The notes under the pieces were generated by a model. That model was not told the origin of the DNA. It did no database searches and saw only the letters and a program-made list of their open reading frames with translations. Positions 3,820-39,167 of a stretch of DNA of 43,701 bases are shown here, piece after piece. This DNA comes from Psammoneis japonica (lineage: Eukaryota). Position 1 is the stretch's first letter. Each line of letters begins with the position of its first letter. The stretch covers positions 1 through 43,701 of the forward strand of contig QPGO01000355.1 in the NCBI GenBank assembly GCA_008632985.1, written 5' to 3'. Both the position numbers and the translations under genes were made by a program.

Positions 3820-4275
3820 AGTGCCCTCAGATGTGCACAAGGTGTTTGTGAGATGTGTGTCTGGTGTGTGTGGAGCATGAGTGAGGTGATTTGTCAAAGC
3901 AAGAGCCACCTGCAAAAGAGTTGTGGCACAAACTTTGTTGGCACGTTTTGCAGTCATTGTGCTTGTGCTCAGCTTTTCCAGGAGCTTCCTCATGCAAAGT
4001 GCATCCAACACCACATTTGCAGCCACATTGTCCAGTGTGAACCCCGGCACTCATCAGCATCTCAACAACATTTGATGGCATGACACTCTTGCACCACAAG
4101 AGTCTTTTGAGGGCCAAAGAGTGTGCACAAAGCTGGGCAAACGGGGACAGGATGAGATGGATCTCTGCTGAACAACTTTTGCAGATGGAAACAGCAAGCC
4201 CTTTTCATGATCAAACCTTCTGAGTCAGCAAAATCTTTGTTGGGGTTTTCCAAACTCCTGCTGTGCTTGAAACAT
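3820..4275. repeat. Module G (copies at ~1240-1487, ~11120-11440 plus 13119-13226, ~18470-18925, ~20568-21022, ~22731-23502 plus 25180-25307, ~29377-29829)
   Basis: Recurrent GTGCCTCAGACATGCACAAGGTGTTTGTGAGATG...CTCCTGCTGTGCTTGAAACAT block. Two copies are split by module E. Confidence 0.9.
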
Positions 4276-4700
4276 CTTGCACACACCTCGCACACATGTT
4301 GCGCACATCTTTCAAATGTTTTGTGCACATCTTGCACACATCTTGCAAATCTGACACACACAATTTGCACACATCTTAAACACACACACCTCACACAATG
4401 TTGGCCAACATCTCATGTGCACATCTCACAAACACCCCACACACATCTTGTGCACATGTTTCAAATGTTTGCGCGCATCTTGCGCACACATTGCAAACAA
4501 CTCACAAACACTTTGCACACATCTCACACACATTCTGTGCACATCTTTTGAACACATCTTTCAAACATTTTGCACATCTCACAAACATCTGTCAAACACC
4601 TTGCACACACATTTGCACATCCCAAAAATGTCCAGCACACACCTTGTGCACATTGTGCAAACACATCATGTGCACTTTGTGCGCGCATCTTTCAATTGCC

Positions 4701-6745
4701 TTTGCTGAAACACACATCATGTTTCAGCAAAATTTGCTGAAACATGCGCTTTGCTGAAACAGGTTTGAGCAAAATCTGCTGAAACATGAGTCCTGTTTGA
4801 GCAATTTTGCTGCAATGATTGTGGCGGCATTTTGTTCATGCTTGTCTGGGTGGTTGGCCAGTCAGAGTGTCCGCTGGTGACAAGATCAGTTGCCGTGCAG
4901 ACAACGTGCAGATGCAATGAAGGACAGCCGATCCAATCCATTTGAGCATGGATTTGGAACGAGCTCAACGAGCCAGTTCCAGATCCGATTGCCAATGGTT
5001 TGGAGCTCCTGTCCATTGCACTTTTGGTTTCATGCACTGTCCCATGACAAAGCACACCACGTGCCACATCGTGCAGCCAAGCTGCACTGACACCATGGGG
5101 AAATGAGCAAGGTGTCATGATTGCTGCTGTTGCTTTGACAGGGAAGCAAAAAATGTTCCAAACAAGGCACCAACAATTGTTTGCAGCATCCAACAACAGC
5201 GCTTGCTGCAAAAATTAGCTCTTCTTCTCTCTTTAAAAAAAAATCATTCCATTGTTCCTTTTCCATGTCCCGCATGGTGCGTTGTCGACGTTGAAAATCA
5301 GAGTGTCATTTTCTGCATCTGTCATGGGAAACTGGCAGAAACAAAATGACGCTGTCCATGCACGTGTGTTCCTCAGATGCTGACAATTCCTTGGATGCTG
5401 ACAACTGCATCTGCAGCGGAAATCAACCCAGTGATTGCAGACTTGCTGGTGTCAGCGCAGTGGTCGTGAGAGCCCTGCAGAAAAAAGTCAGCAAACACAC
5501 TGCTTGTTGGCATGTCTGAGTGCAGCACAACAGCCAACGGTGCTGAGAAATCAAGTGCAACCATCAAAACAAGCACTGCTTTACAGTGGTGTGACTGCAC
5601 TCTCATCTTGATTGACGTTGTGGCCACTGATCTACAAATGATCAAGCCCCATGGTGGGAGATGTGGTGTTTTCCATTGTTCTGAGCATTGCATGAGATGC
5701 AACTTCAAAATGCCATGTCATGTGCCATGATGTCGCGTGGCTTCATGTGCAATGCATGGGGTGAACCTCAAGCAACCAGGAGGTGGTGGCTGCCCAATGC
5801 ACCCCAAGTGACCCGGATGTTGGGATTCTTGATTTGCCAAAATCACATCCATCATTGCACGCCCTCACCTGACAAACCTTGAAAGCTGCTGCTGCAATGT
5901 CGACAACCACGTGGCACTCTCAACAAGCATGACAATCATCTCAAATGTGCAACCCAATTGCATGATCAAATTGCACACATTCAAATTGGTGCGCTGGTGC
6001 ATTCTTGCCTTTCTTGCATCTAAAACGGGTGCTGTGAGATGACACAAGCAACAAAACTTTTCATCACGGTGATTGGTGATCGGTGCACACATCTTGTGCT
6101 GGAGTCATGCAGAATCCTGCAGGCAAAGCAGTTGACAGCCGTCATTTTTCTGAAAAGTCTTGGTGGACGTGCGCTGTGTTGTTCGATGCCTGCTTCACCT
6201 CCACAGCCACAGAAGCAGCCCATGTCAATTGGCTTGAAATGACACAGCATCTGAACGAAAGATTCCGGCAGAATGAGGTGTGAAAGACCCCAAAAAGAGG
6301 AAAAACACTTTGCCACAGCAATTCTCTGTTGTGACAAGGCAACGTTGACCATGCAGTGATTAAAGCGCATCATCGCCACACAGCATTGATGCAGCAGACT
6401 GGTTGAAATGTGGGCTGCTTGAACATTTTGCTTTTGCAGCAACTTGTTTGCTTCAAGCCTTGCCAAAGCACTGGCAAGTTTGTGCTTCAATGCGCCATGT
6501 GGTTGTGAGTGGAGTCAGTGCCAGCAACATGGGTGGCATTTTTTTTGTTCAGAAACTGAGTCACTCATCAACACACAATTTTGCCTGTTGCATGTTTCAG
6601 CAAAATTTGCTGAAACATGGCATGTTTCAGCATTTGCTGAAACATGACAGGTTCAGCAGAATCTGCTGAAACATTTGGCAGGTTTCAGAAATTGCTGAAA
6701 CGTGCATTTTTGGTGATGCACGACTCAGCTTTTGATGAAACATGC
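4701..6745. mobile_element. Module D copy 1: ~2-kb putative DNA element with palindromic subterminal repeat clusters
   Basis: Both ends carry arrays of TTTCAGCA/TGCTGAAAC motifs, including the 29-bp palindrome CATGTTTCAGCAAA-A-TTTGCTGAAACATG at 4718-4746 and 6591-6619. The interior is decayed and coding-like. No TSD or transposase motif recognised. Confidence 0.55.
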
Positions 6746-9700
6746 AGCAAATGCAAGACTGAAATGCAGTTTTTTAGTCATGAATGTCAACAACACTTGC
6801 AGCCGGGGTTTGCTCATTTCCGTTGAAATTGTGTGATGTCGCACATTTCAGCAGATTGCCCAGATGGCACTGCAAACACCCCACACATGTCAGGCACGCA
6901 ACTCCTGCACATCTCAAACAAACCTCACACACACCACACAACTGCCCCACACAGGCCTGGCACACTTGCTGTGCACACCTTGCACATGTGTTGCTCACAT
7001 CTTTTGCACATGCCACGCACATCTTTCAAACATTTCATGCATGTGTCGCGCACATTTCAAGCCCTGAGGTGCAACAAAACAGTTGGCAAACTGCCGCTTC
7101 AAATTGCTCACAAAAACAGCGGGACTGCCATCACATGTGTTCATGATGGACACGTGTTTCATTGTTGGCTCTCCCCTCCAACTTGCAATTTCAGAATCAT
7201 CTTTTCTGTCAGCAAGGATCAGCTCTGAAACAAAAACAGAGTGCAACAGAAGTGACTCATTGCATGAGACGTTGACAAGTCTCGCTGAAGTGGTGGGTCT
7301 TTGACTCCAAGGTCAGCGTCAAGCAACACTCTTTTCTTGTTGCCCTCTTCTGCTGTTGGTGCTTGGCTGCCTCCACCCAATGGGGCGCCCCCTTCTTTAG
7401 AAGCTGAGTGTGCACCTTGATGATGCCAATCATCAAATTCTGCGCTCCAACTTGCTCCATGGCTTGCAATGGTCTCTGCCTCTTCACAAGACACAAATTG
7501 TCAATCACTCTCCAATTTGATTGTGTGTTCCAGCAAACGGGGCAATTCTTGGATGATGCGGTCTGCCTCTTTTGCTGAAGGCATCACAATTTCTTTTGCA
7601 CCAGAAAAGTCTGGTTTCAGAATCTCCTGAGAGGACCAGGTCTTGCTGCTCTGAATGAGTGGGCTGTCTTTGTCACAGATCTTGTGTTTCTTTGACTCAT
7701 CAATCAAAGTCTCCACAATGACAAGGAGAGCAGACTGTTTGCATCCAATTTTTCACTGCAACTCTTGTGCCCAAGGTTGTCAAAATGTGCAGTCAAGTGG
7801 CAGCACTTTGAAAAGCATCTGAAATCAATTCCATCTTTGACGAGTTGTTGCGCTCGTCACAGACACATCTTTTGAATGTTTCACACATCTCGCAAACAGC
7901 TTGCAAGCACCTCACACACACATTGCACACATCTCACAAGTGCCAATGCACACACCTTGTGCACATTTTGCAAACACCTCTTGCACACCTTGCACACATC
8001 TTTCAAACTTTTTTGTGCGCATCTTGCGCACATCTCACAAAACCCTCAAATGTGCCACTTCACACAGATCTTGCACACATCTCAAAAACATCTCACACAC
8101 ATCATGAGCACATCTTGTGCGCACCTTGCAAACACCTCCAAAACAGATTGCGATGTGCTCCAGCTGCACATGAACCAAATTGTGCACATGAACAACATTT
8201 GCGCAATTTTTGCGCGATCCCCAACTTGCGATCGATCTTTCACCACCAAAAGCATGGATTTGTGCAAATGCAAATGTTTTGCAACACTGACAACACTCAT
8301 GTGAGTGCTGCAATGTCATTGTCGCTGTGCTGTCTGTGTTTTTCATTGCGTTAAAAGATTGGCAACACAACGGATGATTTTCGGCAAAAATGTTGCCATC
8401 ACTTGGATGTCACCTGAGTGTGTCTTTCTTCGATGCCACTTGGCAGGTTTTCCACCTGCAAAGAAATCTCAGCAAAAACACGCTGACGTGCAATCAGCGT
8501 TGAGTCTGCTGAGGAAGTTTGTGATGCACACCCCACAAAAAACTGTTCAAATGTTCACACTCTGGACACCCACAGAAGCCAACCCGCTTGAGCGTTTTGT
8601 GTGAAAATGCTCCACGCACTTGAAGACACACAATTTACGTTCAAAGTCAATTGTCGTTTTGTGCATCATCTGGGACTGGAGCACGTCTTGCACACATTTT
8701 GCACACATTTGGCAAACATCTCACAAACACCTCACACACAGGCGCCACACACATCTTGCAAACACCTCTCACACACATTGTGCACACATCACAAATGCCT
8801 TGCACACATTTTGCAAACACCTTGCACACATCATTTCAAACTTTTTGCACCCACAAGTCAAACATTTTGCACAAAGCTTGCACACACATCTTGCAAACAC
8901 ATGACACACATTTCACACACATCTGGCAAACATCTCACAAACACCTCATGCGCACACTGCACACCACATGCACACATCCTGCACACCTCGCATGTGTGCC
9001 CTGCAAATTGCTTTCACACACATCTTGCAAAGACACCACGCAAATCAGCCACACAGCTCTTGCACTTGCACACACCTCACACACATGTTGCGCACATCTT
9101 TCAAATGTTTTGTGCACATCTTGCAAATCTGACACACACATTTTGCGTGCATCTCAAACACACACACCTCACACAATGTTGGCCAACATCTCACACACAT
9201 CTCACAAAAACCCCACACACATCTTGCGCACATGTTTCAAACATTTGCGCACATCTTGCGCACACACTGCAAACACCTCACAAACACTTTGCACACATCT
9301 CACACACATTCTGCACACATCTTGTGCACACATCTTTCAAACATTTTGCACATCTCACAAACATCTGTCAAACACCTTGCACACACATTGTGCACATCTC
9401 ACAAATGTCCTGCACACACCTTGCGCACATTGTGCAAACACATCACGTGCATTTTGTGTGCGCATCTTTCATTTGTCCCTCACAAAACTTTTGAACAATT
9501 CATGCACATCTGCAAACACCTCACACACACCACTTCACACACATCTTGCACACATCTCACAAATGTCTTGCACACATCTGGCGCGCATGTTGCGCACATC
9601 TTGCATGCTGACCACACATCTCATGCACACCTGGCAAACATCTCACAAGCAAATTGTGCACATGCTGTGCACATGGACCCAACAGCAGGCCATCAAGTTT

Positions 9701-13118: not shown

Positions 13119-13623
13119 ACAGGATGAGATGGATCTCTGCTGAACAACATTTGCAGATGGAGACAGCGGGTCTGAGTCAGCAAAATCTTTGTTGGGTTGA
13201 CCAAACTCCTGCTGTGCTTGAAACATCTTGCACACGCCTCACACACATGTTGCACACATCTTGCAAATCTGACACACACATTTTGCACACATCTCAAACA
13301 CACACACACACCTCACACAATGTTGGCCAACATCTCATGTGCACATCTCACAAACACCCCACACACATCTTGTGCACATGTTTCAAACATTTGCGCACAT
13401 CTTGCGCACACATTGCAAACAACTCACAAACACTTTGCACACATCTCACACACATTCTGTGCACATCTTTTGAACACATCTTTCAAACATTTTGCACATC
13501 TCACAAACATCTGTCGAACACCTTGCACACACATTGTGCACATCCCAAAAATGTCCTGCACACACCTTGTGCACATTGTGCAAACACATCATGTGCACTT
13601 TGTGCACGCATCTTTCAATTGCC

Positions 13624-15690
13624 TTTGCTGAAACACACATCATGTTTCAGCAAAATTTGCTGAAACACGCGTTTTGCTGAAACAGGTTTCAGCAAAATCT
13701 GCTGAAACATGAGTCCTGTTTGAGCAATTTTGCTGCAATGATTGTGGCGGCATTTTGTTCATGCTTGTCTGGGTGGTTGGCCAGTCAGAGTGTCCACTGG
13801 TGACAAGATCAGTTGCCGTGCAGACAACGTGCAGATGCAATGAAGGACAGCCGATCCAATCCATTTGAGCATGGATTTGGAGCGAGCTCAACGAGCCAGT
13901 TCCAGATCCGATCGCCAATGGTTTGGAGCTCCTGTCCATTGCACTTTTGGTTTCATGCACTGTCCCATGACAAAGCACACCACATGCCACATTGTGCAGC
14001 CAAGCTGCACTGACACCATGGGGAAATGAGCAAGGTGTCATGATTGCTGCTGTTGCTTTGACAGGGAAGCAAAAAATGTTCCAAACAAGGCACCAACAAT
14101 TGTTTGCAGCATCCAACAACAGCGTTCACTGCAAAAATTAGCTCTTCTTCTCTCTTTAAAAAAAAATCATTCCATTGTTCCTTTTCCATGTCCCGCATGG
14201 TGCGTTGTCGACGTTGAAAATCAGAGTGTCATTTTCTGCATCTGTCATGGGAAACTGGCAGAAACAAAATGACGCTGTCCACGCATGTGTGTTCCTCAGA
14301 TGCTGACAATTCCTTGGATGCTGACAACTGCATCTGCAGTGGAAATCAACCCAGTGATTGCAGACTTGCCGGTGTCAGCGCAGTGGTCGTGAGAGCCCTG
14401 CAGAAAAAAGTCAGCAAACACACTGCTTGTTGGCATGTCTGAGTGCAGCACAACAGCCAACAGCGCTGAGAAATCAAGTGCAGCCATCAAAACAAGCACT
14501 GTTTTACAGTGGTGTGACTGCACTCTCATCTTGATTGACGTTGTGGCCACTGATCTACAAATGATCAAGCCCCATGGTGGGAGATGTGGTGTTTTCCATT
14601 GTTCTGAGCATTGCATGAGATGCAACTTCAAAATGCCATGTCATGTGCCATGATGTCGCGTGGCTTCATGTGCAATGCATGGGGTGAACCTCAAGCAACC
14701 AGGAGGTGGTGGCTGCCCAATGCACCCCAAGTGACCCGGATGTTGGGATTCTTGATTTGCCAAAATCACGTCCATCATTGCACGCCCTCACCTGACAAAC
14801 ATTGAAAGCTGCTGCTGCAATGTTGACGACCACATGGCACTCTCAACAAGCACGACAATCATCTCAAATGTGCAACCCAATTGCATGATCAAATTGCACA
14901 CATTCAAATTGGTGCACTGGTGCATTCTTGCCTTTCTTGCATCTAAAACGGGTGCTGTGAGATGACACAAGCAACAAAACTTTTCATCACGGTGATTGGT
15001 GATCGGTGCACACATCTTGTGCTGGAGTCATGCAGAATCCTGCAGGCAAAGCAGTTGACAGCCGTCATTTTTCTGAAAAGTCTTGGTGGACGTGCGCTGT
15101 GTTGTTCGATGCCTGCTTCACCTCCACAGCCACAGAAGCAGCCCATGTCAATTGGCTTGAAATGACACAGCATCTGAACGAAAGATTCCGGCAGAATGAG
15201 GTGTGAAAGACCCCAAAAAGAGGAAAAACACTTTGCCACAGCAATTCTCTGTTGTGACAAGGCAACGTTGACCATGCAGTGATTAAAGCGCATCATCGCC
15301 ACACAGCATTGATGCAGCAGACTGGTTGAAATGTGGGCTGCTTGAACATTTTGCTTTTGCAGCAACTTGTTTGCTTCAAGCCTTGCCAAAGCACATTCAA
15401 AGGCACTGACTGCAGTGGCAAGTTTGTGCTTCAATGTGCCACGTGGTTGTGAGTGGAGTCAGTGCCAGCAACATGGGTGGCATTTTTTTTGTTCAGAAAC
15501 TGAGTCACTCATCAACACACAATTTTGCCTGTTGCATGTTTCAGCAAAATTTGCTGAAACATGGCATGTTTCAGCATTTGCTGAAACATGACAGGTTCAA
15601 CAGAATCTGCTGAAACATTTGGCAGGTTTCAGAAATTGCTGAAACGTGCATTTTTGGTGATGCACGACTCAGCTTTTGATGAAACATGCA
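13624..15690. mobile_element. Module D copy 2
   Basis: Collinear with 4701-6745. Palindromes at 13641-13669 (one mismatch) and 15535-15563. Has 21 bp that copy 1 lacks. Confidence 0.55.
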
Positions 15691-16483
15691 GCAAATGCAA
15701 GACTGAAGTGCAGTTTTTTAAGTCATGAATGTCAACAACACTTGCAGCCGGGGTTTGCTCATTTCCGTTGAAATTGTGTGATGTCGCACATTTCAGCAGA
15801 TTGCCCAGATGGCACTGCAAACACCCCACACATGTCAGGCACGCAACTCCTGCACATCTCAAACATGCCTCACACACACCACACAACTGCCCCACACAGG
15901 CCTGGCACACTTGCTGTGCACATCTTGCGCATGTGTTGCTCACATCTTTTGCACATGCCACGCACATCTTTCAAACATTTCATGCATGTGTTGTGCACAT
16001 TTTAAGCCCTGGGGTGCAACAAAACAGTTGGCAAACTGCCGCTTCAAATTGCCCACAACAACAGTGGGACTGCCATCACATGTGTTCATGATGGACACGT
16101 GTTTCATTGTTGGCTCTCCCCTCCAACTTGCAATTTCAGAATCATCTTTTCTGTCAGCAAGGATCAGCTCTGAAACAAAAACAGAGTGCAACAGAAGTGG
16201 CTCATTGCATGAGATGTTGACAAGTCTGGCTGAAGTGGCAGGTCTTTGACTCCAAGGTCAGCGTCAAGCAACATTCTTTTCTTGTTGTCCTCTTCTGCTG
16301 TTGGTGCTTGGCTGCCTCCACCCAATGGGGCTCCCCCTTCTTTAGAAGCTGAGTGTGAACCTCAATGATGCCAATCATCAAATTCTGCACTCCAACTTGC
16401 TCCGTGGCTTGCAATGGCCTCTGCCTCTTCACAAGACACAAATTGTCCATCACTCTCCAATTTGATTGCGTGCTCCAGCAAAC

Positions 16484-16930
16484 TGCAACACACAGCTGCC
16501 AACAAGAGTCAACGCATCACAGCGACGTGTTGCAGCCTTTAAATGTCACAAAGGGCGTGACAAAAATGACCTTTTGTCTGCACGCATGCTGCATCATGAA
16601 TTCACAGCGGAGTGGTGCATCGCAACCACTGGGCAGGAGGCCAGGGGTTCGAAACCCTGAGTGGGAGTTGTCTGCAGCAACGTTGATCACTGTCGAGCAC
16701 GTGAAACTCTGTGCAGTTCTGCATGTTCCTTCGCATGCACCCACACTGTTCTGCCAAAACCATGCAGTGTCAGCACACATCAGCAAAGAGCCGCACGGGC
16801 GCGCGACACATGGGGAGGAGTGCAACACACAGCCACTGATGAGAGCCAATGTGTCACGGCGACGTGTTGCAGCCTTTAAATGTCACAAAGGGCGTGACAA
16901 AAACAACCTTTTGTCTGCACACATGCTGCA
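16484..16930 (+). mobile_element. TRIM (non-autonomous miniature LTR retrotransposon), 447 bp
   Basis: 110-bp LTRs at 16484-16593 and 16821-16930 with TG...CA termini. PPT GGGGAGGAG at 16812-16820. 4-bp TSD AAAC at 16480-16483 and 16931-16934. The empty site CCAGCAAACGGGGC is present in paralogous module C copies (~7530, ~28372). Confidence 0.95.
16598..16666 (+). promoter_or_regulatory. tRNA-derived sequence / Pol III internal promoter (A and B boxes) inside the TRIM
   Basis: A-box-like CAGCGGAGTGG at 16605-16615 (fits TRGCNNARYGG except first base C) with a D-stem-like GCGG/TCGC pairing. B box GGTTCGAAACCC at 16646-16657. No complete anticodon arm, so not a tRNA gene. Confidence 0.7.
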
Positions 16931-19900
16931 AAACGGGGCAATTCTTGGATGATGTGGTCTGCCGCTTTTTTGCTGAAGGCATCACAATTTCTTTTGCACC
17001 AGAAAAGTCTGGTTTCAGAATCTCCTGAGAGGACCAGGTCTTGCTGCTCTGAATGAGTGGGCTGTCTTTGTCACAGATCTTGTGTTTCTTTGACTCGTCA
17101 ATCAAAGTCTCCACAATTGCATGGAGAACAGACTGTTTGCATCCAATTTTTCACTGCAACTCTTGTGCCCAAGGTTTTCAAAATGTGCAGTCAAGTGGCA
17201 GCACTTTGAAAAGCATCTGAAATCAATTCCATCTTTGACGAGTTGTTTTGCACTCATCACAGACACATCTTTTGAATGTTTCACACATCTCGCAAACAGC
17301 TTGCAAGCACCTCACGCACACATTGCACACATCTCACAAGTGCCAATGCACACACCTTGTGCACATTTTGCAAACACCTCTTGCACACCTTGCACACATC
17401 TTTCAAACTTTTTTGTGTGCATCTTGCGCACATCTCACAAAACCCTCAAATGCGCCACTTCACACACATCTTGCACACATCTCAAAAACATCTCACACAC
17501 ATCATGAGCACATCTTGTGCGCACCTTGCAAACACCTCCAAAACAGATTGCGATGTGTTCCAGCTGCACATGAACCAAATCGTGCACAAAAACTGCATTT
17601 GCACAATTTTTGTGCAATCCCCAACTTGCGATCGATCTTTCACCACCAAAAGCATGGATTTGTGCAAATGCAAATGTTTTGCAACACTGACAACACTCGT
17701 GTGAGTGCTGCAATGTCATTGTCACTGTGCTGTCTGTGTTTTTCATTGCGTTGAAAGATTGGCAACACAGCGGATGATTTTCGGCAAAAATGTTGCCATC
17801 ACTTGGATGTCACCTGAGTGTGTCTTTCTTCGATGCCACTTGGCAGGTTTTCCACCTGCAAAGAAATCTCAGCAAAAACACACTGACGTGCAATCAGCGT
17901 TGAGTCTGCTGAGGAAGTTTGTGATGCACACCCCACAAAAAACTGTTCAAATGTTCACACTCTGGACACCCACAGAAGCCAATCCGCTTGAGCGTTTTGT
18001 GTGAAAATGCTCCATGCACTTGAAGACACACAATTTGTGTTCAAAGTCGATTGTCGTTTTGTGCGTCATCTGGGGCTGGAGCACGTCTTGCACACATTTT
18101 GCACACATTTGGCAAACATCTTACAAACACCTCACACACAGGCACCACACACATCTTGCAAACACCTCTCACACACATTGTGCACACATCACAAATGCCT
18201 TGCAAACATTTTGCAAACACCTTGCACACATCATTTCAAACTTTTTGCACCCACAAGTCAAACATTTTGCACAGAGCTTGCACACACATCTTGCAAACAC
18301 ATGACACACATTTCACACACATCTGGCAAACATCTCACAAACACATCACGCGCACACTGCACACCACATGCACACATCCTGCGCACCTCACATGTGTGCC
18401 CTGCAAATTGCTTGCACACACATCTTGCAAACACACCACACAAGTCAGCCACACAGCTCCTGCACATCTCCAGTGCCTCAGACATGCACAAGGTGTTTGT
18501 GAGATGTGTGTCTGGTGTGTGTGGAGCATGAGTGAGGTGATTTGTCAAAGCAAGAGCCGCCTGCAAAACAGTTGTGGAACAAACTTTGTTGGCACGTTTT
18601 GCAGTCATTGTGCTTGTGCTCAGCTTTCCAGGAGCTTTCTCATGCAAAGTGCATCCAACCCCACATTTGCAGCCACATTCTCCAGTGTGAACCCCGGCGC
18701 TCATCAGCATCTCAACAATGTTTGATGGCACGACACTCTTGCACCATGAGAGTCTTTTGAGGGCCAAAGAGTGTGCACAAAGCTGAGCAAACAGGGACAG
18801 GATGAGATGGATCTCTGCTGAACACCTTTTTGCAGATGGAGACAGCAAGAACCTTTCATGATCAAACCTTCTGAGTCAGCAAAATCTTTGTTGGGTTGAC
18901 CAAACTCCTGCTGTGCTTGAAACATCTTGCACACACCTCACACACAGGTTGCACACATCTTTCAAATGTTTTGTGCACATCTTGCAAATCTGACACACAC
19001 ATTTTGCATGCATCTCAAAAACACACACCTCACACAATGTCGGCCAACATCTCACACACATCTCACAAACACCCCACACACATCTTGCGCACATGTTTCA
19101 AACATTTGCACACATCTTGCACACACACTGCAAACACCTCACAAACACTTTGCACACATCTCACACACATTCTGTGCACATCTTGTGCACACATCTTTCA
19201 AACATTTTGCACATCTCACAAACATCTGTCAAACACCTTGCACACACATTGTGCACATCTCACAAATGTCCTGCACACACCTTGCGCACATTGTGCAAAC
19301 ACATCACGTGCATTTTGTGCGCGCATCTTTCAATTGTCCCTCACAAACCTTTCAGTGCAACAGGAGCAGCTCATTTCGAGAGACTTTGACAATGCCAGCT
19401 GAAGCAGCGGGTCTTTGACTCCAATGTCAATGTCCAGCAACATTCTTTTCTTGTTGTCCTCTTCCGCTGTTGGTGCTTGGTTGCCTCCACCCAATGGGGC
19501 GCCCCTTCTTTAGAAGCTGAATGTGCACCTTGATGATGCCAATCATCAAATTCTGCACTCCAACTTGCTCCACGGCTTGCAATGGTCTCTGCCTCTTCAC
19601 AAGACACAAGTTGTCTGTTGCTCTCCAATTTGATTGTGTGTTCCAGCAAACGGAGCAATTCGTGGATGACACGGTCTGCCACTTTTGCTGATGGCGTTGC
19701 AGTTTCTTTTGCACCAGAAAAGTCTGGTTTCAGAATCTCCTGAGACCAGTTCTTGCTGCTCTGAATGAGCGGGCTGTCTTTGTCACAGATCTTGTGTTTC
19801 TTTGACTTGCCAATCAAAGTCTCCACAATGACGCAGAGAATGGACTGTTTGCATCCCATGTTTTCACTGCAACTCTTGTGTCCAAGGTTGTCAAAATGTG

Positions 19901-22892
19901 CAGTCAAGTGGCAGCACTTTGAAAAGCATCTGAAATCAATTCCATCTTTGACGAGTTGTTGCACTCATCATTGACACATCTTTTGAATGTTTCGCACAGC
20001 TCGCAAACAACTCACACACACATTGCACACATCTCACAAGCGCCAATGCACACACCTTGTGCACATTTTGCAAACACCTCAAATGTGACACTTCACACAC
20101 ATCTTGCACACATCTCAAAAACATCTCACACACATCATGAGCACATCTCGTGCACACCTTGTGAACACCTCAAGAACAGATTGCACACACTTTGCACACA
20201 TTTGGCAAACATCTCACAAACACCTCCTCACGCACAGGCACCACACACATCTTGCAAACACCTCTCACACACATTGTGTGCACATCACAAATGCCTTGCA
20301 CACATTTTGCAAACACCTTGCACACATCATTTCAAACATTTTGCACCCACAAGTCAAACATTTTGCACAAAGCTTGCACACACATCTTGCAAACACATGG
20401 CACACATTTCACACACATCTGGCAAACATCTCACAAACACCTCGCACAAACACTGCCCACCACATGCACACATCCTGTGCACCTCGCATGTGTGCCCTGC
20501 AAATTGCTTTCACACACATTTTGCCAAGACACCACACAAGTCAGCCACACAGCTCTTGCACATCTCCAGTGCCTCAGACATGCACAAGGTGTTTGTGAGA
20601 TGTGTGTCCCGGTGTGTGTGGAGCATGAGTGAGGTGATTTGTCAAAGCAAGAGCCACCTGCAAAAGAGTGGTGGCACAAACTTTGTTGGCACGTTTTGCA
20701 GTCGTTGTGCTTGTGCTCAGCTTTCCAGGAGCCCCCTCATGCAAAGTGCATCCAACCCCCACATTTGCAGTCACATTGTCCAGTGTGAACCCCGGCACTC
20801 ATCAGCATCTCAACAACATTTGATGGCATGACACTCTTGCACCACGAGAGTCTTTTGAGGGCCAAAGAGTGTGCACAAAGCTGGGCAAATGGGGACAGGA
20901 TGAGATGGATCTCTGCTGAACAACTTTTGCAGATGGAAACAGCAAGCCCTTTTCATGATCAAACCTTCTGAGTCAGCAAAATCTTTGTTGGGTTTTCCAA
21001 ACTCCTGCTGTGCTTGAAACATCTTGCACACACCTCGCACACATGTTGCGCACATCTTTCAAATGTTTTGTGCACATCTTGCACACATCTTGCAAATCTG
21101 ACACACACAATTTGCACACATCTTAAACACACACACCTCGCACAATGTTGGCCAACATCTCACGCACATCTCACAAACACCCCACACACATCTTGCACAC
21201 ATGTTTCAAACATTTGCGCGCATCTTGCGCACACACCACAAACACCTCACAAACACTTTGCACACATCTCACACACATTCTGTGCACATCCAGTGCACAC
21301 ATCTTTCAAACATTTTGCACATCTCACAAACATCTGTCAAACACCTTGCACACACATTGTGCACATCTCACAAATGTCCTGCACACACCTTGCACACATT
21401 GTGCAAACACATCATGTGCATTTTGTGCGTGCATCTTTCAACTCCCCCTCATGAACCTTTCAAACAATTTGTGCACATCTTGCAAACACCTTGCACACAT
21501 CTTGCAAATCTGACGTGCACATTTTGCACACATCTCAAACACACACACACACACACACCTCACACAATGTTGGCCCACATCTCACACACATCTCACAAAC
21601 AACCCACACACATCTTGAACACATGCTTCAAACATCAGCACACATCGTGCGCACACATTGCAAACACCTCACAAACACTTTGCACACATCTCACACACAC
21701 TCTGTGCACATCTTGTGCACACATCTTTCAAACATTTTGCACATCTCACAAACATCTGTCAAACACCTTGCACACACATTGTGCACACTTCACAAATGTC
21801 CTGCACACAACTTGTGCACATTGCCTCACACACACCACACAAATGCCCCACACAGGTCTGGCACACATGTTGTGCACACCTTGCACATGTGTTGCTCACA
21901 TCTTCAGCACATGCCATGCACATCTTTCAAACATTTCGTGAACGTGCCACGCACATTTTGCAAATGCCTTGCACACATCTCACGCGCATCTCACACACAT
22001 CATCCAAACAATTTGTGCACATCTCTCGCACATTTCTCAAACATCTTGCACACACCTCACATGCACATTTTGCACACATCTCACAAACACCTCACACACA
22101 ATGTGCTTGCACATGGCTTGCATTCATTTTGCTGGTGTCACACACACACCTTGCCAGCACCTCACTCACATCTTGCACACATCTCATCCACATCTTTCAA
22201 ACATTTTTTGCGCACCTTGCAAACACCTCATCTTGCAAGTGACTTGCACACATCTCACAAACACATCATAAAAAGATCACACACACCACACACAAATCTC
22301 ACTAAAAATTTGCAAACATCTTGCACACATGTGTCCCACAATTTTTTGGAAGATCGCACAAACAAAACATGTGATGGATGATGAAATGCAATTGCATCAC
22401 ACGTTGCACTGCAAGCTCTCACCTGGAGCTGGAAAGCATCCAGTGCAGGTCCCAAGACTGCCTCTGTCATGCTCCAGAAGCACTGCAGTTTGTCTGGCTC
22501 AGCACACCATGGCATGCTGCCAGTGCACAACATGCCCTGCTTGGCTGGACTTGTGTTGAAAGACAAACAAAATGCTGTGCCATGATGCTCTCAGCAGCTT
22601 CTTTTGTTGTTGAGAAAATCAATGATGATGAGAGCATGTTTCAAGCACAACAGGAGTTCTTGGGTCAACCCAACAAAGGCTCTTGCAAACACACCACACA
22701 AGTCAGCCACACACAGATCCTGCACATCTCCAGTGCCTCAGACATGCACGAGGTGTTTGTGAGGTGTGTGTCTGGTGTGTGTGGAGCATGAGTGAGGTGA
22801 TTTGGCAAAGCAAGAGCTGCCTGCAAAAGAGTTGTGGCACAAACTCTGTTGGCGTGTTTTGCAGTCATTGTGCTTGTGCTCAGCTTTGCAGG

Positions 22893-23339
22893 TGCAGCAT
22901 GCATGCAGACAAAAGGTTGTTTTTGTCATGCCCTTTGTGACATTTAAAGGCTGCAACACGTCACCGTGATGCATTGACTCTCATTGGCAGCTGCGTGTTG
23001 CACTCCTCCCCATGCACCACGCGTCCATGCGGCTCTTTGCCAACATGCACTGACACTGCACGGTTTTGGTGGAACAGTGTGGGCATGCACGAAGGAACAC
23101 ACAGAACTGCACAGAGTTTTGCGCATTCGACAGTGATCAACGTTGCTGCAGACAACTCCCACTCAGGGTTTCGAACCCCTGGCCTCCTGCCCAATGGCTG
23201 CGATGAACCACTCCGCTGTGAATTCACAGTGCAGCATGCACGCAGACAAAAGGTTGTTTTTGTCATGCCCTTTGTGACATTCAAAGGCTGTGGCACATCA
23301 CTGTGATGCATTGACTCTTGTCAGCAGCTGCATGTTGCA
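22893..23339 (-). mobile_element. TRIM copy 2, 447 bp, independent insertion in the opposite orientation
   Basis: LTRs at 23230-23339 (5') and 22893-23002 (3'). PPT complement CTCCTCCCC at 23003-23011. 4-bp TSD CAGG at 22889-22892 and 23340-23343. Empty site AGCTTTGCAGGAGC at ~11271-11284. Confidence 0.95.
23157..23225 (-). promoter_or_regulatory. tRNA-derived A/B-box sequence inside TRIM copy 2
   Basis: Reverse complement reads CAGCGGAGTGGTTCATCGC...CAGGGGTTCGAAACCCTG. Confidence 0.7.
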
Positions 23340-23502
23340 CAGGAGCTTTCTCATGCAAAGTGTGTCCAACCCCACATTTGCAGACACATTCTCCAGTGTG
23401 AACCCCGGTGCCCATCAGCATCTCAACAACATTTGATGGCATGGCACTTTTGCACCATGTGAGTGCCTTTTGAGGGCCAAAGAGTGTGCACAAAGCTGAG
23501 CA

Positions 23503-25179
23503 CATGGAAGGACGCCGACTGTGGGTTGCCCCATGTCTTGCACCTTGACCTCCTTCACTCAACATTGGAGGTCATTCTGGGGTGGGTGCAGAGCTGAGGT
23601 TGGGAGGAGAGGTGGGTGCTTGACCTTCTCTGTTCCGTCAATGCCAAAAGTGCCCAGCTCCACAGGAGCAGCTTCTCACACAGCTGCTTCACTTGTGCGC
23701 AAAGCCTTTTCTTCCTGGATCTTCTGCAATTTTGCGGCAGTTGCCCGCCAATGACACCTGCGTGTGTTTCTGTGTGCGCTCCCGCGCTGATGTTGCCCTT
23801 CTCAGACGGCATTTCGCTGGGTCTCCCAAGACCATTCTGGCCATTTCAGCCAATGGCATGCCCTCATTTCAGCATGACAAGCAATGTTTCTAAGTGGAAA
23901 ATGACCCTGACCCCTGGCATCGACTCCTTGTGGTTCGCATGCTCGTTGATTTTTTTGCAATTTTCTGCAGACTCAAGAAATTGCCCACACGGATCACAGC
24001 ACAAATTCCACACCACGCGACAGCAACAACCACTGACGACTGCTGCGTCAATGCTCCAAACTGCTTGCGCCAATGCCCGTCAGTCCTCAACAACCTTCTT
24101 TGTCCCTGTCTGCCAATCAAGTGCTTTGCTGCATTTGGCGAAAGCACCTCTCCTCTGTTGCAGCACTGACGAGCATGAAAGTGAGTCTCCCTTTGGCGCT
24201 GAGCGATGATTGTCCTTTTGCTGTGGATCACAGCACAAACTCCACATGTGACAGCAACAACCACTGATGACTGCTGCATCAATGCTCCAAACTGCTTGCG
24301 CCAATGCCCGTCAGTCCTCAACAACCTTCTTTGTCCCTGTCTGCCAATCAAGCGCTTCGCTGCATTTGGTTGAAGCACCTCTCCTCTGTTGCGGCACTGA
24401 CGAGCATCAAAGTGAGTCTCCCTTTGGCACTGAGCAATGACTGTCCTTTTGCTGCATGCATCGGCATGTCTGCACAAGATCCGGCATGGTTTCTGCATGG
24501 GACAATTGTTTTTTCAGATGACTGACAAGGTCTGTCAACAAGGCTTGTTGTTTCACATCTGCAAGTCCTGTGCTGCCTTGCTTCTGTCTGCTGGCTGATC
24601 AAGCTCACTGCTCTGAGTGGCAATCTTGCTGTTTTTGCTGCAGTTCCTCAAGGTGTGCAAACAATGAGATGCCTCATGATGCCAGTTGGTGTCTGTCACT
24701 CAAGCAAATTCCAAGGTCCCTTTTGGTTTCTGGCATGGCTCCCATCAAATTTTTTCCCAAAATCAACTGTCCTCTGTGGTCACAGTGGTGCTGATGTGTG
24801 CATCACCAGCAAGACTGCAGCAAACTCCATGTGTTTTGTTCTCTGTTTCAGCTGTTTCCGTTGGGCGTCTCCTCTGGGAGATGCCGTTTCAGGCTGGTTG
24901 CGCGCACTTCTGCCGCATCTCCAAGTGGGGTGCGCTGGAAGTGTGGGTCAGCCGGCACCGGCGTTGCTGGGAAAAGGTGCAATGGCACCCAAAACAGTTG
25001 ATTTGGGTTTTTTTCTGGATCTTCTGGCCTGTCTTCTGCAACTGCGGGTGTGTGTTGTTTTGTCCTCCGCTTCTTTCACATGCCAGCAATGGATCCCCAA
25101 ACATGCTCAATGCATGGGATTGAATGCACCATCCTTCCAAAAGCTCTTTGCACATGACTCACCACCCTGTGCACCCAAA
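23503..25179. repeat. Module E copy 2
   Basis: Collinear with 11441-13118 at an offset of ~12062. Confidence 0.85.
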
Positions 25180-25709
25180 ACAGGATGAGATGGATCTCTG
25201 CTGAACAACATTTGCAGATGGAGACAGCGGATCCTTTCCATGATCAAACCTTCTGAGTCAGCAAAATCTTTGTTGGGTTGACCAAACTCCTGCTGTGCTT
25301 GAAACATCTTGCACACGCCTCACACACATGCTGCGCACATCTTTCAAATGTTTTGTGCATGTCTTGCACACATCTTGCAAATCTGACACACACACACCTC
25401 ACACAATGTTGGCCAACATCTCATGTGCACATCTCACAAACACCCCACACACATCTTGTGCACATGTTTCAAACCTTTGCGCACATCTTGCGCACACATT
25501 GCAAACAACTCACAAACACTTTGCACACATCTCACACACATTCTGTGCACATCTTTTGAACACATCTTTCAAACATTTTGCACATCTCACAAACATCTGT
25601 CAAACACCTTGCACACACATTGTGCACATCCCAAAAATGTCCTGCACACACCTTGTGCACATTGTGCAAACACATCATGTGCACTTTGTGCGCGCATCTT
25701 TCAATTGCC

Positions 25710-27650
25710 TTTGCTGAAACATGCTGCATGTTTCAGCAAAATTTGCTGAAACATGCATTTTGCTGAAACAGGTTTCAGCAAAATCTGCTGAAACATGAGT
25801 CCTGTTTGAGCAATTTTGCTGCAATGATTGTGGCGGCATTTTGTTCATGCTTGTCTGGGTGGTTGGCCAGTCAGAGTGTCCGCTGGTGACAAGATCAGTT
25901 GCCGTGCAGACAACGTGCAGATGCAATGAAGGACAGCCGATCCAATCCATTTGAGCATGGATTTGGAACGAGCTCAACGAGCCAGTTCCAGATCCGATTG
26001 CCAATGGTTTGGAGCTCCTGTCCATTGCACTTTTGGTTTCATGCACTGTCCCATGACAAAGCACACCACGTGCCACATCGTGCAGCCAAGCTGCACTGAC
26101 ACCATGGGGAAATGAGCAAGGTGTCATGATTGCTGCTGTTGCTTTGACAGGGAAGCAAAAAATGTTCCAAACAAGGCACCAACAATTGTTTGCAGCATCC
26201 AACAACAGCGTTCACTGCAAAAATTAGCTCTTCTTCTCTCTTTAAAAAAAAAATCATTCCATTGTTCCTTTTCCATGTCCCGCATGGTGCGTTGTCAACG
26301 TTGAAAATCAGAGTGTCATTTTCTGCATCTGTCATGGGAAACTGGCAGAAACAAAATGACGCTGTCCATGCACGTGTGTTCCTCAGATGCTGACAATTCC
26401 TTGGATGCTGACAACTGCATCTGCAGCGGAAATCAACCCAGTGATTGCAGACTTGCCGGTGTCAGCGCAGTGGTCGTGAGAGCCCTGCAGAAAAAAGTCA
26501 GCAAACACACTGCTTGTTGGCATGTCTGAGTGCAGCACAACAGCCAACAGTGATGAGAAATCAAGTGCAGCCATCAAAACATGCACTGTTTTACAGTGGT
26601 GTGACTGCACTCTCATCTTGATTGACGTTGTGGCCACTGATCTACAAATGATCAAGCCCCATGGTGGGAGATGTGGTGTTTTCCATTGTTCTGAGCATTG
26701 CATGAGATGCAACTGCAAAATGCCATGTCATGTGCCATGATGTCGTGTGGCTTCATGTGCAATGCATGGGGTGAACCTCAAGCAACCAGGAGGTGGTGGC
26801 TGCCCAATGCACCCCAAGTGACCCAGATGTTGGGATTCTTGATTTGCCAAAATCACATCCATTGTTGCACGCCCTCACCCGACAAACCTTGAAAGCTGCT
26901 GCTGCAATGTCGACAACCACATGGCGCTCTCAACAAGCATGACAATCATCTCAAATGTGCAACCCAATTGCATGATCAAATTGCAAACATTCAAATTGGT
27001 GCGCTGGTGCACTCTTGCCTTTCTTGCATCTAAAACAGGTGCTGTGAGATGACACAAGCAACAAAACTTTTCATCGCGGTGATTGGTGATCGGTGCACAC
27101 ATCTTGTGCTGGAGTCATGCAGAATCCTGCAGGCAAAGCAGTTGACAGCCGTCATTTTTCTGAAAAGTCTTGGTGGACGTGCGCTGTGTTGTTCGATGCC
27201 TGCTTCACCTCCACAGCCACAGAAGCAGCCCATGTCAATTGGCTTGAAATGACACAGCATCTGAACGAAAGATTCTGGCAGAATGAGGTTTGAAAGACCC
27301 CAAAAAGAGGAAAAACACTTTGCCACAGCAATTCTCTGTTGTGACAAGGCAACGTTGACCATGCAGTGATTAAATCACATCATTGCCACACAGCATTGAT
27401 GCAGCAGACTGGCTGAAATGTGGGCTGCTTGAACATTTTGCTTTTGCAGCAACTTGTTTGCTTCAAGCCTTGCCAAAGCACATTCAAAGGCACTGACTGC
27501 AGTGGCAAGTTTGTGCTTCAATGCACCATGTGGTTGTGAGTGGAGTCAGTGCCAGCAACATGGGTGGCATTTTTTTCATTCAGAAACTGAGTCACTCATC
27601 AACACACAATTTTGCCTGTTGCATGTTTCAGCAAAATTTGCTGAAACATG
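25710..27650. mobile_element. Module D copy 3 (right end shortened)
   Basis: Palindromes at 25727-25755 and 27622-27650. About 190 bp present in copies 1 and 2 is missing directly after the right palindrome. Confidence 0.55.
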
Positions 27651-30600
27651 TTTGCTCATTTCCGTTGAAATTGTGTGATGTCGCACATTTCAGCAGATTG
27701 CCCAGATGGCACTGCAAACACCCCACACATGTCAGGCACACAACTCCTGCACATCTCAAACATGCCTCACACACACCACACAACTGCCCCACACAGGCCT
27801 GGCACACTTGCTGTGCACACCTTGCACATGTGTTGCTCACATCTTTTGCACATGCCGCGCACATCTTTCAAACATTTCATGCATGTGTTGTGCACATTTT
27901 AAGCCCTGGGGTGCAACAAAATGGTTGGCAAACTGCCACTTCAAATTGCTCACAACAACAGTGGGGCTGCCATCACATGTGTTCATGATGGACACGTGTT
28001 TCATTGTTGGCTCTCCCCTCCAACTTGCAATTTCAGAATCATCTTTTCTGTCAGCAAGGATCAGCTCTGAAACAAAAACAGAGTGCAACAGAAGTGACTC
28101 ATTGCATGAGACGTTGACAAGTCTGGCTGAAGTGGTGGGTCTTTGACTCCAAGGTCAGCGTCAAGCAACACTCTTTTCTTGTTGCCCTCTTCTGCTGTTG
28201 GTGCTTGGCTGCCTCCACCCAATGGGGCGCCCCCTTCTTTAGAAGCTGAGTGTGCACCTTGATGATGCCAATCATCAAATTCTGCACTCCAGCTTGCTCC
28301 GTGGCTTGCAATGGTCTCTGCCTCTTCACAAGACACAAGTTGTCAATCACTCTCCAATTTGATTGCGTTTTCCAGCAAACGGGGCAATTCTTGGATGATG
28401 CGGTCTGCCGCTTTTGCTGGGGGCATCACAATTTCTTTTGCACCAGAAAAGTCTGGTTTCAGAATCTCCTGAGAGGACCAGGTCTTGCTGCTCTGAATGA
28501 GTGGGCTGTCTTTGTCACAGATCTTGTGTTTCTTTGACTCGTCAATCAAAGTCTCCACAATGACATGGAGAACAGACTGTTTGCATCCAATTTTTCACTG
28601 CAACTCTTGCGCCCAAGGTTGTCAAAATGTGCAGTCAAGTGGCAGCACTTTGAAAAGCATCTGAAATCAATTCCATCTTTGGCGAGTTGTTGCGCTCGTC
28701 ACAGACACATCTTTTGAATGTTTCGCACATCTCGCAAACAGCTTGCAAGCACCTCACGCACACACTGCACACATCTCACAAGCGCCAATGCACACACCTT
28801 GTGCACATTTCGCAAACACCTCTTGCACACCTTGCACACATCTTTCAAACTTTTTTGTGCGCATCTTGCGCACATCTCACAAAACCCTCAAATGTGCCAC
28901 TTCACACACATCTTGCACACATCTCAAAAACATCTCACACACATCATGAGCACATCTTGTGCACACCTTGTGAACACCTCAAGAACAGATTGCACACATT
29001 TTGCACACATTTGGCAAACATCTCACAAACACCTCCTCACGCACAGGCACCACACACATCTTGCAAACACCTCTCACACACATTGTGCGCACATCACAAA
29101 TGCCTTGTGCACATTTTGCAAACACCTTGCACACATCATTTCAAACTTTTTGCACCCACAAGTCAAACATTTTGCACAAAGCTTGCACACACATCTTGCA
29201 AACACATGGCACACATTTCACACACATCTGGCAAACATCTCACAAACACCTTGCACAAACGCTGCCCACCACATGCACACATCCTGTGCACCTCGCATGT
29301 GTGCCCTGCAAATTGCTTTCACACACATCTTGCAAAGACACCACGCAAGTCAGCCACACAGCTCTTGCACATCTCCAGTGCCTCAGACATGCACAAGGTG
29401 TTTGTGAGATGTGTGTCTGGTGTGTGTGGAGCATGAGTGAGGTGATTTGTCAAAGCAAGAGCCACCTGCAAAAGAGTTGTGGCACAAACTTTGTTGGCAC
29501 GTTTTGCAGTCGTTGTGCTTGTGCTCAGCTTTCCAGGAGCTTCCTCATGCAAAGTGCATCCAGCCCCACATTTGCAGTCACATTGTCCAGTGTGAACCCC
29601 GGCACTCATCAGCATCTCAACAACATTTGATGGCATGACACTCTTGCACCACGAGAGTCTTTTGAGGGCCAAAGAGTGTGCACAAAGCTGGGCAAACGGG
29701 GACAGGATGAGATGGATCTCTGCTGAACAACTTTTGCAGATGGAAACAGCAAGCCCTTTTCATGGTCAAACCTTCTGAGTCAGCAAAATCTTTGTTGGGT
29801 TTTCCAAACTCCTGCTGTGCTTGAAACATCTTGCACACACCTCGCACATGTGTTGCGCACATCTTTCAAATGTTTTGTGCACATCTTGCACACATCTTGC
29901 AAATCTGACACACACAATTTGCACAAATCTTAAACACACACACCTCGCACAATGTTGGCCAACATCTCACGCACATCTCACAAACACCCCACACACATCT
30001 TGCACACATGTTTCAAACATTTGCGCGCATCTTGCGCACACACCACAAACACCTCACAAACACTTTGCACACATCTCACACACATTCTGTGCACATCTTG
30101 TGCACACATCTTTCAAACATTTTGCACATCTCACAAACATCTGTCAAACACCTTGCACACACATTGTGCACATCTCACAAATGTCCTGCACACACCTTGC
30201 ACACATTGTGCAAACACATCATGTGCATTTTGTGCGTGCATCTTTCAACTCCCCCTCATGAACCTTTCAAACAATTTGTGCACATCTTGCAAACACCTTG
30301 CACACATCTTGCAAATCTGACACACACATTTTGCACACATCTCAAACACACACACACACACACACACACACCTCACACAATGTTGGCCAACATCTCACAC
30401 ACATCTCACAAACAACCCACACACATCTTGCACACATGCTTCAAACATCAGCGCACATCGTGCGCACACATTGCAAACACCTCACAAACACTTTGCACAC
30501 ATCTCACACACATTCTGTGCACATCTTGTGCACACATCTTTCAAACATTTTGCACATCTCACAAACATCTGTCAAACACCTTGCACACACATTGTGCACA

Positions 30601-34329: not shown

Positions 34330-35300
34330 AACAGCAAAGAGAGGGTGGGGAAATGACATGATGGCCCCACCTTCTGGAAAATGATCACTGGGTGACACAA
34401 AAATCGCAGGACAACTTTGTTCCCCACCAAGCAAGAAGCCAAACTGCTGCCACCTTTGAAAAATGATGTGACTCCTCAGAAGTGCAAATGACTCTAGCCA
34501 AAAGTTTTCCAGAGGCAAAATGTTTGGGTTGGTTGGGCTGCAGCCAAATCAACTCACACAAGCCAGACCTTTTGCAGCCACGATGAAGGCACTTGTGCCC
34601 ACTCCCTCTCAAGGGAACATGAGAGCTGTGCCCTGCACAACTCCCACTGTGGTGTGTGCTGCAGAAAAGCTGGCATTGCCAAATGACTCTGTTGCCAAAT
34701 GTTTGTGTTGCCTCTCTTTGCTGGTCAAAGCAACGATGACCAGCTTCTCTTGCTGAGAACTTTCTGAGGCTCTGGAGCTGCAAAAAACTTTCTCCAAAGC
34801 AGGCCCTTTTTCAGCTTCTTGCAATCATGCAACACAACTCATGCCCACACAAACATGATGCCATTGATGGATCCACATTCACGGGATGTTGCAGCACCAG
34901 TGAACAGGGCTGCGGCAAAGATGAGTGTTGTGACAGCAGCTTTAAATGGGGCGGTCTGCTGTGTGCGTGCATGTGTTGAGACCTGCCAAAACGACATGTT
35001 GATGGATCAGAAGCCTTTGCAGGTTTTCACTGGAACACCAAAAATGAGCTCTCCAAGCTGTCCATCATCATTGGGGGGGGGGGGGGGCTCCTCTTCAACA
35101 GCCGCCAACCCCACTCTGTTGGAGAACATTTCGACCCAAGCCCTTTCCCCACCCTGCAACACCAGCAAGTTTTCAACCACCTTGATGGCGTTCTTCACGT
35201 GCAATTTTGCAGAACTGCCTCAAATGAGATGACCATCCTTCATCTGGATCTCATCGATGTCCACTCCTCGAACATCGGAGTCGTTTCTCCCATTCGTTTC
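34330..35300 (-). pseudogene. Possible decayed minus-strand gene remnant at the compartment border
   Basis: Protein-like stretches (DSDVRGVDIDEIQMKDGHLI*GSSAKLHVKNAIKVVENLLVLQGGERAWVEMFSNRVG; TTLIFAAALFTGAATS) broken by TGA stops and frameshifts. Family not recognised. Confidence 0.3.
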
Positions 35301-35317
35301 TCTCTACGAGTCGTGCA

Positions 35318-39060: not shown

Positions 39061-39167
39061 CATTTTATTTCTTGCCCTCCGACAATGATGCAGTGCTAAG
39101 TACAATAGTAGAATCAGCCGCAATGCATTCGAGAATGTTCTTATCCGATCGACAATTATGCAGACGA

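Follow-up and report, generated by a model that had tools for sequence, protein, structure and literature searches.

Two copies of a 447-bp element resembling a terminal-repeat retrotransposon in miniature (TRIM) were found in a 43,701-nucleotide stretch of Psammoneis japonica DNA (contig QPGO01000355.1 of assembly GCA_008632985.1), which was analysed at its full length and is called the window here. Copy 1 lies at 16484-16930 on the + strand and copy 2 at 22893-23339 on the - strand, each as 110 + 227 + 110 bp. The sister long terminal repeats (LTRs) of both copies differ by transitions only, nearly always at pyrimidine-purine (YR) dinucleotides, and often as an adjacent TG in one LTR facing CA in the other (referred to below as swaps). 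We lean, with little more than even confidence, towards explaining this pattern by unstable CG and TA steps in the non-genic, tandem-repeat compartment that holds both elements.

Realignment of the copy 1 LTRs reproduced exactly the counts given in an earlier note on this DNA: the alignment is gap-free, 14 of the 110 positions differ, and all 14 differences are transitions. Five adjacent TG<->CA doublets are swapped (LTR positions 14-15, 17-18, 20-21, 32-33, and 84-85), three sites have CG in one LTR and TG or CA in the other (positions 30, 38, and 101), and the remaining difference is a single T/C at position 26 (GTC versus GCC). The copy 2 LTRs differ at 12/110 positions, also by transitions only, and when the four LTRs are taken together all 25 variable columns are transitions. 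At positions 8-9 and 100-101 of this four-way alignment, CG is found alongside TG and CA. The distances between sisters (14 and 12) and between non-sisters (16, 10, 20, and 12) describe a star. YR dinucleotides account for 24/26 LTR differences, though they cover 68/110 positions (P = 0.0005); moreover, 14 randomly placed transitions gave a mean of 0.43 swaps, with a probability of 5e-5 for five or more (20,000 trials). One further site concerns TA: CTTTAAA is present in three of the four LTRs, while the 5′ LTR of copy 2 has CTTTGAA (C at 23282 on the + strand versus T at 22945 in its sister). The earlier reading of this site as a loss of TA is still the simplest one, with TA retained in 3/4 LTRs and no alternative letter at 16541 in the sequencing run X1 (see below).

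The same spectrum was observed between the two elements. Copy 1 and copy 2 align over 447 columns with no gaps and 62 differences, of which 61 are transitions and one is a transversion; 20 swaps, 12 CG-vs-TG/CA sites, one TA-vs-TG site, and nine non-YR changes were distinguished. Six consecutive mismatches (CATGCA versus TGCATG) at 16734-16741 can be read as three adjacent swaps or as a TGCA-type repeat moved by 2 bp in its register.

Both elements are real insertions, because each is flanked by a 4-bp duplication and the paralogous sites are empty. For copy 1, the duplication AAAC is found at 16480-16483 and 16931-16934, and the filled site has the element between CCAGCAAAC and AAACGGGG, while four paralogs in the window (word starts 2807, 7511, 19624, and 28353) are empty and read CCAGCAAACGG/AG. 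For copy 2, the duplication (CAGG on the + strand) is found at 22889-22892 and 23340-23343, the filled site has the element between GCTTTGCAGG and CAGGAGCTTTC, and six paralogs in the window are empty, for example the word from 11252. The 5′ LTR of copy 1 (16484-16593; repeat family D20) is followed by a non-coding internal domain (16594-16820) ending in the polypurine tract GGGGAGGAG (16812-16820), directly 5′ of the 3′ LTR, which the LTR alignment places at 16821-16930. In the inverted copy 2, the 3′ LTR (22893-23002; repeat family D18), the internal domain (23003-23229), which aligns to that of copy 1 without gaps, and the 5′ LTR with the TTTGAA variant (23230-23339) follow each other along the + strand, and the polypurine tract is identical to that of copy 1 (complement at 23003-23011). 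All four LTRs start with TGCAAC and end with GCTGCA. No Pfam family was found in the open reading frames (ORFs) across both copies, so that no coding capacity was recognised. The size below ~1 kb, the TG...CA ends, the duplication in the 4-6 bp range with an empty site, the polypurine tract, and the non-coding interior are among the structural hallmarks of a TRIM, and from these features the two copies are identified as insertions of a TRIM-like non-autonomous LTR retrotransposon.

The dinucleotide composition of the surrounding DNA is extreme. Positions 1-35000, which hold both elements, form a TA-free, CG-poor, and TG/CA-saturated compartment, with observed/expected (o/e) ratios of 0.02 for TA (50 TA in 35 kb), 0.32 for CG, and 2.08 for CA/TG, versus 0.53-0.55, 0.99-1.03, and 1.21-1.22, respectively, in the gene-bearing DNA (35001-37499 and 39051-43701). 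GC content is 47% in all of these regions, compartment and genes alike. The border lies near 35.0 kb, where the number of TA per 500 bp rises from 0-2 to 6-39. A second depleted island is found at 37500-39050, between two normally composed genes (TA o/e 0.10, CG 0.46, CA/TG 1.65). No repeat within the window was found for either this island or the 31-35 kb segment, so that depletion occurs there without visible duplication. Most of the compartment is taken up by three host units of ~9-12 kb in tandem (4147-9065, 13119-18465, and 25180-30100), pairwise 2.5-2.85% apart, and by 11-bp-periodic CA-rich arrays. The closest pair among the host units varies block by block, and this mosaic suggests gene conversion or unequal exchange. 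The elements themselves have CG o/e values of 0.67 and 0.50, versus 0.32 for the compartment, and would simply be less advanced in CG decay than the DNA around them.

As side observations on the compartment, the arrays are degenerate, built on CACACATCTTG-like units, and strongly skewed towards C over G on the + strand; they are found at ~17250-17560, 18090-18440, 18920-19330, and 20000-22330, and in the paralogues of these segments. A scaffold gap of 465 N (1488-1952) lies within the first host unit. The island is 1.55 kb long and of complex sequence, its ORFs have no Pfam match, and it is possibly a degraded mobile element.

A host reference spectrum was obtained from nine paralog pairs comprising 19,352 aligned bases, with some segments present in more than one pair. 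These pairs differ by 537 transitions, 191 transversions, and 64 gap runs. At the transition share of the host paralogs, the probability of 14/14 transitions in the copy 1 LTRs is 0.014 and that of 26/26 in both pairs is 0.0004. Similarly, the 61:1 ratio of transitions to transversions between copy 1 and copy 2 departs from the host ratio of 537:191 (Fisher p = 6e-7), and no gap run was seen where the host spectrum predicts ~5.5. Divergence at non-YR positions is 1/42 in each LTR pair, versus 13/68 and 11/68 at YR positions. The argument of the earlier note that the LTR divergence is not a matter of age was therefore upheld, with no transversion among the 26 LTR differences, one among the 62 between the copies, no indels, and a non-YR clock that also reads young. 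By every slow clock available in the sequence (transversions, indels, and non-YR transitions) the insertions are young, and pyrimidine-purine steps supply nearly all of the 11-13% LTR divergence.

The ancestral state of the changed sites was approached from two sides, the element family and the host units. Family tallies were taken from short depth-weighted unitigs of sequencing run X1, in which half of the 31-letter words sampled from 15000-24500 are present; on 16400-16820, X1 gave 768 pieces, and runs X2 and X3 gave 1 and 0, respectively. The summed X1 unitig depth is up to ~396,000 in the LTR core versus 118-371 in the flank; such depth does not equal copy number, and the 447-bp element family is, by this measure, very abundant. 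Polymorphism within the family consists of transitions at 34 of 35 variable places. Where the family has a clear majority, copy 1 departs from it by six CpG losses (16521, 16699, 16736, 16752, 16762, and 16779), one TA loss (16703), two non-YR transitions, and one transversion. At 16702-03, the family majority is T at the first position (70%) and A at the second (93%), against TG in copy 1 and CA in copy 2; from these letters, this site is a swap with a TA ancestor. LTR site 32-33 is ~80% CA in the family (T 18.6%, G 11.1%), and at site 84-85 TG and CA are about equally frequent. By letter shares, the TA state exceeds the CG state in 8/9 family doublets. A family with CG at all swap sites and without TA, the outcome that the earlier note would have taken as a sign of CpG deamination alone, was not observed, as the two scored among the five copy 1 swap sites are either CA (~80%) or a TG/CA mix and TA is present in the family. 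Its suggestion that the LTR ends derive from TGTAAC...CTACA found no support, since all four LTRs have TGCA at both ends and no alternative letter was seen at 16486 or 16591, the 5′ cover being thin.

In the host units, CG was lost to TG or CA at 40/228 lineage-sites, versus a reverse gain at 31/3126 (~1%), and changes from CA or TG to TA were found at 1/3126. C>T changes amount to 8.8% at CpG versus 0.3-0.6% elsewhere (CpA 0.38%, CpC 0.56%, CpT 0.32%). A further paralog showed CG as the third state at 10 of 29 host swap sites. In these sequence comparisons, most single changes with an assignable direction are CpG losses; the ancestral doublet is more often CG, and TA plays a minor part.

In the explanation that we favour, two old copies of the abundant 447-bp TRIM-like element would have inserted into the tandem-repeat, non-genic compartment, where the self-complementary pyrimidine-purine steps CG and TA would be unstable and transitions would drive them to TG or CA. 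Each LTR would then decay independently after insertion. A site that began as CG (the usual case) or as TA (now and then) and ended as TG on one side and CA in the sister LTR would appear as a swap, while a site left intact in only one LTR would appear as CG-vs-TG/CA or TA-vs-TG. With only these steps fast, the LTRs would look 11-13% diverged although the slow clocks read young. The CpG arm of this decay would most simply be methyl-cytosine deamination, and the TpA arm a separate, context-dependent T->C/A->G process. The core cause would be ordinary in kind, namely the decay of hypermutable dinucleotides in silent DNA; what is unusual is the TA-free compartment, the sparing of TA according to its flanking bases described below, and the excess of swaps.

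That flanking-base rule emerges from the surviving TAs in 1-35000: 72% of them are YTAR and 0% RTAY (R, purine; Y, pyrimidine), versus 17% and 35%, respectively, from 39001 to the end of the window. These 50 TAs are mostly of the TTAA, TTAG, and CTAA types, none stands before T, and many are kept across the three tandem units. In addition, 10 of 12 C>T changes at CpA in the host units are coupled with an A>G change of the neighbouring base, giving TG rather than TA. The sequence data suggest, indirectly, that TA, especially RTAY, is short-lived in the compartment and resolves to TG or CA. Inside the element, TA loss is real but minor; neither the many swaps nor the lack of TA across the compartment is accounted for by CpG decay alone. 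We propose more tentatively, and at odds somewhat below even, that a compartment-restricted process erases TpA by T->C/A->G, fastest in R-TA-Y, alongside CpG decay. If so, TAs newly made by C->T at CpA would flip quickly to TG, leaving near-zero TA over 35 kb of complex sequence, with one or two new TAs standing although C>T at CpA proceeds at its background rate (0.38%), and the process would account for a several-fold excess of TG<->CA swaps at unchanged GC content. GC-biased conversion was ruled out as the cause of TA loss: GC content does not change across the border of the compartment, and AT, AA, and TT are not depleted. An ADAR-like preference, as it is generally known, was also ruled out, since TA survives before G or A and is lost before C or T. 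A hypermutation of repeats through TpA loss was not encountered in our literature searches, a negative that extends no further than those searches.

Several counts weigh against the explanation by unstable CG and TA steps. Copy 1 and copy 2 share CG at 12 sites, have CG against TG/CA at 12, and are swapped at 20 (chi-square ~18, calculated by hand); uniform CpG/TpA decay does not fit these numbers, as swaps and intact CGs are both in excess. An element with CG at every swap site simultaneously would have required a CpG o/e near 2. In the host units, 10 swap-only sites were found versus ~2 expected from CG gain (~1%) and loss (17.5%), TA was the third state at 0/29 swap sites, and existing TAs were stable at 20/21 lineage-sites. 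On the side of the family tallies, the X1 cover is thin and its alignments are clipped at LTR positions 1-35, which leaves three of the five copy 1 swap sites unscored. Finally, the loss per presumed CG/TA site is ~0.7 per lineage in the LTRs versus 40/228 = 0.175 in the host units. This higher apparent loss could reflect some additional targeting of the element, although the numbers of sites are low and conversion among the host units blurs the age bound.

Targeting of the element was in fact the proposal of the earlier note, in the form of a hypermutation aimed at the TRIM. It was not established, since the host paralogs carry the same kinds of change (67 TG<->CA swaps and 231 CG-vs-TG/CA differences in the nine pairs) and the whole 35 kb stands at the TG/CA end state; in the explanation we favour, the process would belong to the compartment. 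Even the host flank in X1 has CA>TG alternatives, at 16448-49 and 16451-52. A version in which the TRIM mutates several-fold faster per CG/TA site, for example through dense de novo methylation, is improbable in our judgement. It would account for the contrast between host units that are empty at the insertion sites and only 2.5-2.85% apart and LTR pairs that are 12.7% and 10.9% apart, for the loss of ~0.7 against 0.175, and for the transition:transversion ratio of 61:1 against 2.8:1. An effect spreading from the element could also be read into the unit-2-private changes just 5′ of copy 1, where 13/300 (16180-16483) were found versus 4/298 on the 3′ side, a ~3-fold excess whose 13 changes include two TG>CA swaps and three transversions. 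However, at the five LTR sites with a CG family majority, copy 1 lost only 2/10, which is host-like, and the end-state composition is shared by the host DNA. The age bound is also soft, the mosaic relations of the host units suggesting conversion, while the non-YR divergence of the LTRs (2/84) permits an age up to ~5x that of the units, and a fresh element has more CG/TA to lose than DNA at equilibrium. At the other extreme, elements that are plainly old, with the ordinary spectrum of the genome, would fit with CpG decay being universal in methylated DNA and with the 4.3% private change in the 5′ flank of copy 1. We consider plain age very improbable given the near-absence of transversions and the absence of indels noted above, when in the host paralogs transversions make up 26% and a gap run occurs for every 11 mismatches, and given that both insertion sites are empty in units ~2.7% apart.

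The sister LTRs might instead have been made unlike by ectopic gene conversion or by a mosaic assembly, so that their differences are family polymorphism. The great abundance of the family (depth up to ~396,000 versus 118-371) and the polymorphism of the same sites family-wide (32-33, 48-49, 84-85, 38, and 100) agree with such an origin, as do sister LTRs that are no closer than non-sisters, the clustering of 11 of the 14 copy 1 differences in positions 14-38, and the scaffold gap in the window. The sole non-YR difference of copy 1, the C at position 26, is also found in a variant of the family that appears as a loose end. Yet independent decay would give a star tree just as readily, the hypervariable region is the densest run of YR sites, and old copies 13% from the rest assemble uniquely with ease. 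The polymorphism of the family is itself almost entirely transitions (34/35), so the same mutation process would still be needed, and we hold this origin to be as doubtful as the targeting of the element. Miscalling of modified bases in repeats, with CG and TA written at random as TG or CA, would produce swaps as single events, account for their excess, and explain why repeat DNA changes abruptly to unique DNA. Such an artefact seems most unlikely to us: the X1 unitigs include half of the sampled 31-letter words of the region and agree with the TA-free flank, where the alternatives are CA, TG, or CG and never TA; exact 31-mers at depths of 30-100 are unlike noisy long reads; and the 465-N gap points to scaffolding with short reads, in which 5-methylcytosine and modified T are not miscalled. 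As X1 may be the source data of the assembly, this comparison is not fully independent.

The decay of silenced repeats by loss of methylated CpG (CG->TG/CA) is established in vertebrates, plants, and other methylated genomes. The compartment resembles it in its CG o/e of 0.32 with TG/CA excess, in a loss per site (40/228) that far exceeds the gain (31/3126), and in swaps arising from independent loss on either strand. It differs in that TA is also removed here, far more completely (o/e 0.02), and in that swaps are several-fold above the measured CG turnover. Fungal repeat-induced point mutation (RIP) turns CpA into TpA, so that TA is enriched and CA/TG depleted. Transition-only damage in repeated DNA with sharp borders at genes is common to the compartment and to RIP or RIP-like CpG hypermutation, but here TA is destroyed (o/e 0.02, with CA/TG at 2.08), CA->TA or TG->TA was found at only 1/3126 lineage-sites, and depletion extends to 31-35 kb and to 37.5-39 kb, which hold no repeat in the window. 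Editing of a retro-intermediate by APOBEC or ADAR does not fit: the copy 1 departures from the family majority (six G>A, four T>C, two C>T, and two A>G) have no one-strand bias, the differences lie between sister LTRs rather than being common to both, and the same pattern is found in host DNA that is not a retroelement. CG depletion of retrotransposons is discussed by de Mendoza 2018 (PMC5890265).

The dinoflagellate base 5-hydroxymethyluracil (5hmU) offers a lead only, in that a TpA-preferring, repeat-biased T modification would fit a TpA-specific T->C process. According to PMC11572971, older work found a preference of 5hmU for TA and TC in Crypthecodinium, and 5hmU is enriched on transposons in dinoflagellate DNA; in Breviolum, PMC11071213 reports no sequence motif for 5hmU. 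In the present window, by contrast, introns are of the GT-AG type and the protein clusters are commonest in diatoms (see below). The simple model of 5hmU at TA and TC is weakened, since TC is not depleted (TC/GA o/e 0.84; CC/GG 0.65).

Among described elements, Helenus (PMC10886601, as far as its summary description goes) is comparable in having direct terminal repeats of ~110 bp that begin with TG and end with CA, between them a short core without coding sequence, and in its polypurine tract, its target duplications of 4 bp, and its very high copy number. It has a tRNA-like sequence inside the LTR, while here a T-arm-like motif lies in the internal domain, where no tRNA model matches. This motif, GGTTCGAAACC at 16646-16656 in the copy 1 core, resembles a tRNA T-arm by eye. 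ARAGORN found no tRNA gene and Rfam gave no tRNA match over 16450-16960 even at E <= 10, and a tRNA origin of the core was rejected as unproven. Scans of the whole window with ARAGORN and Rfam also gave no match. The only TGG-initiated candidate for a primer site was noted by eye ~20 nt downstream of the 5′ LTR, with no tRNA gene in the window for comparison. The 21-nt LTR core matched no public genome or viral contig, and its sole match to a metagenome contig was dismissed as chance, as that contig holds no TRIM and is ordinary in composition. Similarly, a scan of public genome contigs with a 24-nt internal core gave no match.

The gene-bearing part of the window contains a single-exon glycosyltransferase-61 (GT61) gene at 35726-36814 (+) and an RluA-type pseudouridine-synthase gene at 39383-40819 (+), which has three exons separated by GT-AG introns of 145 and 83 nt. 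In the Atlas clusters of protein relatives, which serve as leads only, GT61 points to green plants and algae and the synthase relative is commonest in diatoms. A dinoflagellate spliced-leader motif matches the window no better than chance.

The LTR pattern has a direct consequence for dating. LTR-pair dating assumes that sister LTRs are identical at insertion; the same premise applies here, with the difference that two hypermutable dinucleotides dominate the clock, so raw LTR divergence overstates age, and transversions or non-YR sites are needed. As a practical warning, LTR dating in such genomes would overstate age several-fold unless restricted to these. If the TpA arm is a real mutational process, TA would join CpG as a hypermutable dinucleotide, with its decay confined to silent or repeated DNA and to one particular four-base context; mutagenesis of this kind, linked to genome defence or to DNA modification, would be new. 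It would amount to a repeat-silencing hypermutation whose direction at TA is opposite to that of fungal RIP, possibly tied to thymine modification, and it could be measured directly in the TRIM family, whose sister-LTR pairs, in their thousands, each contain an internal control.

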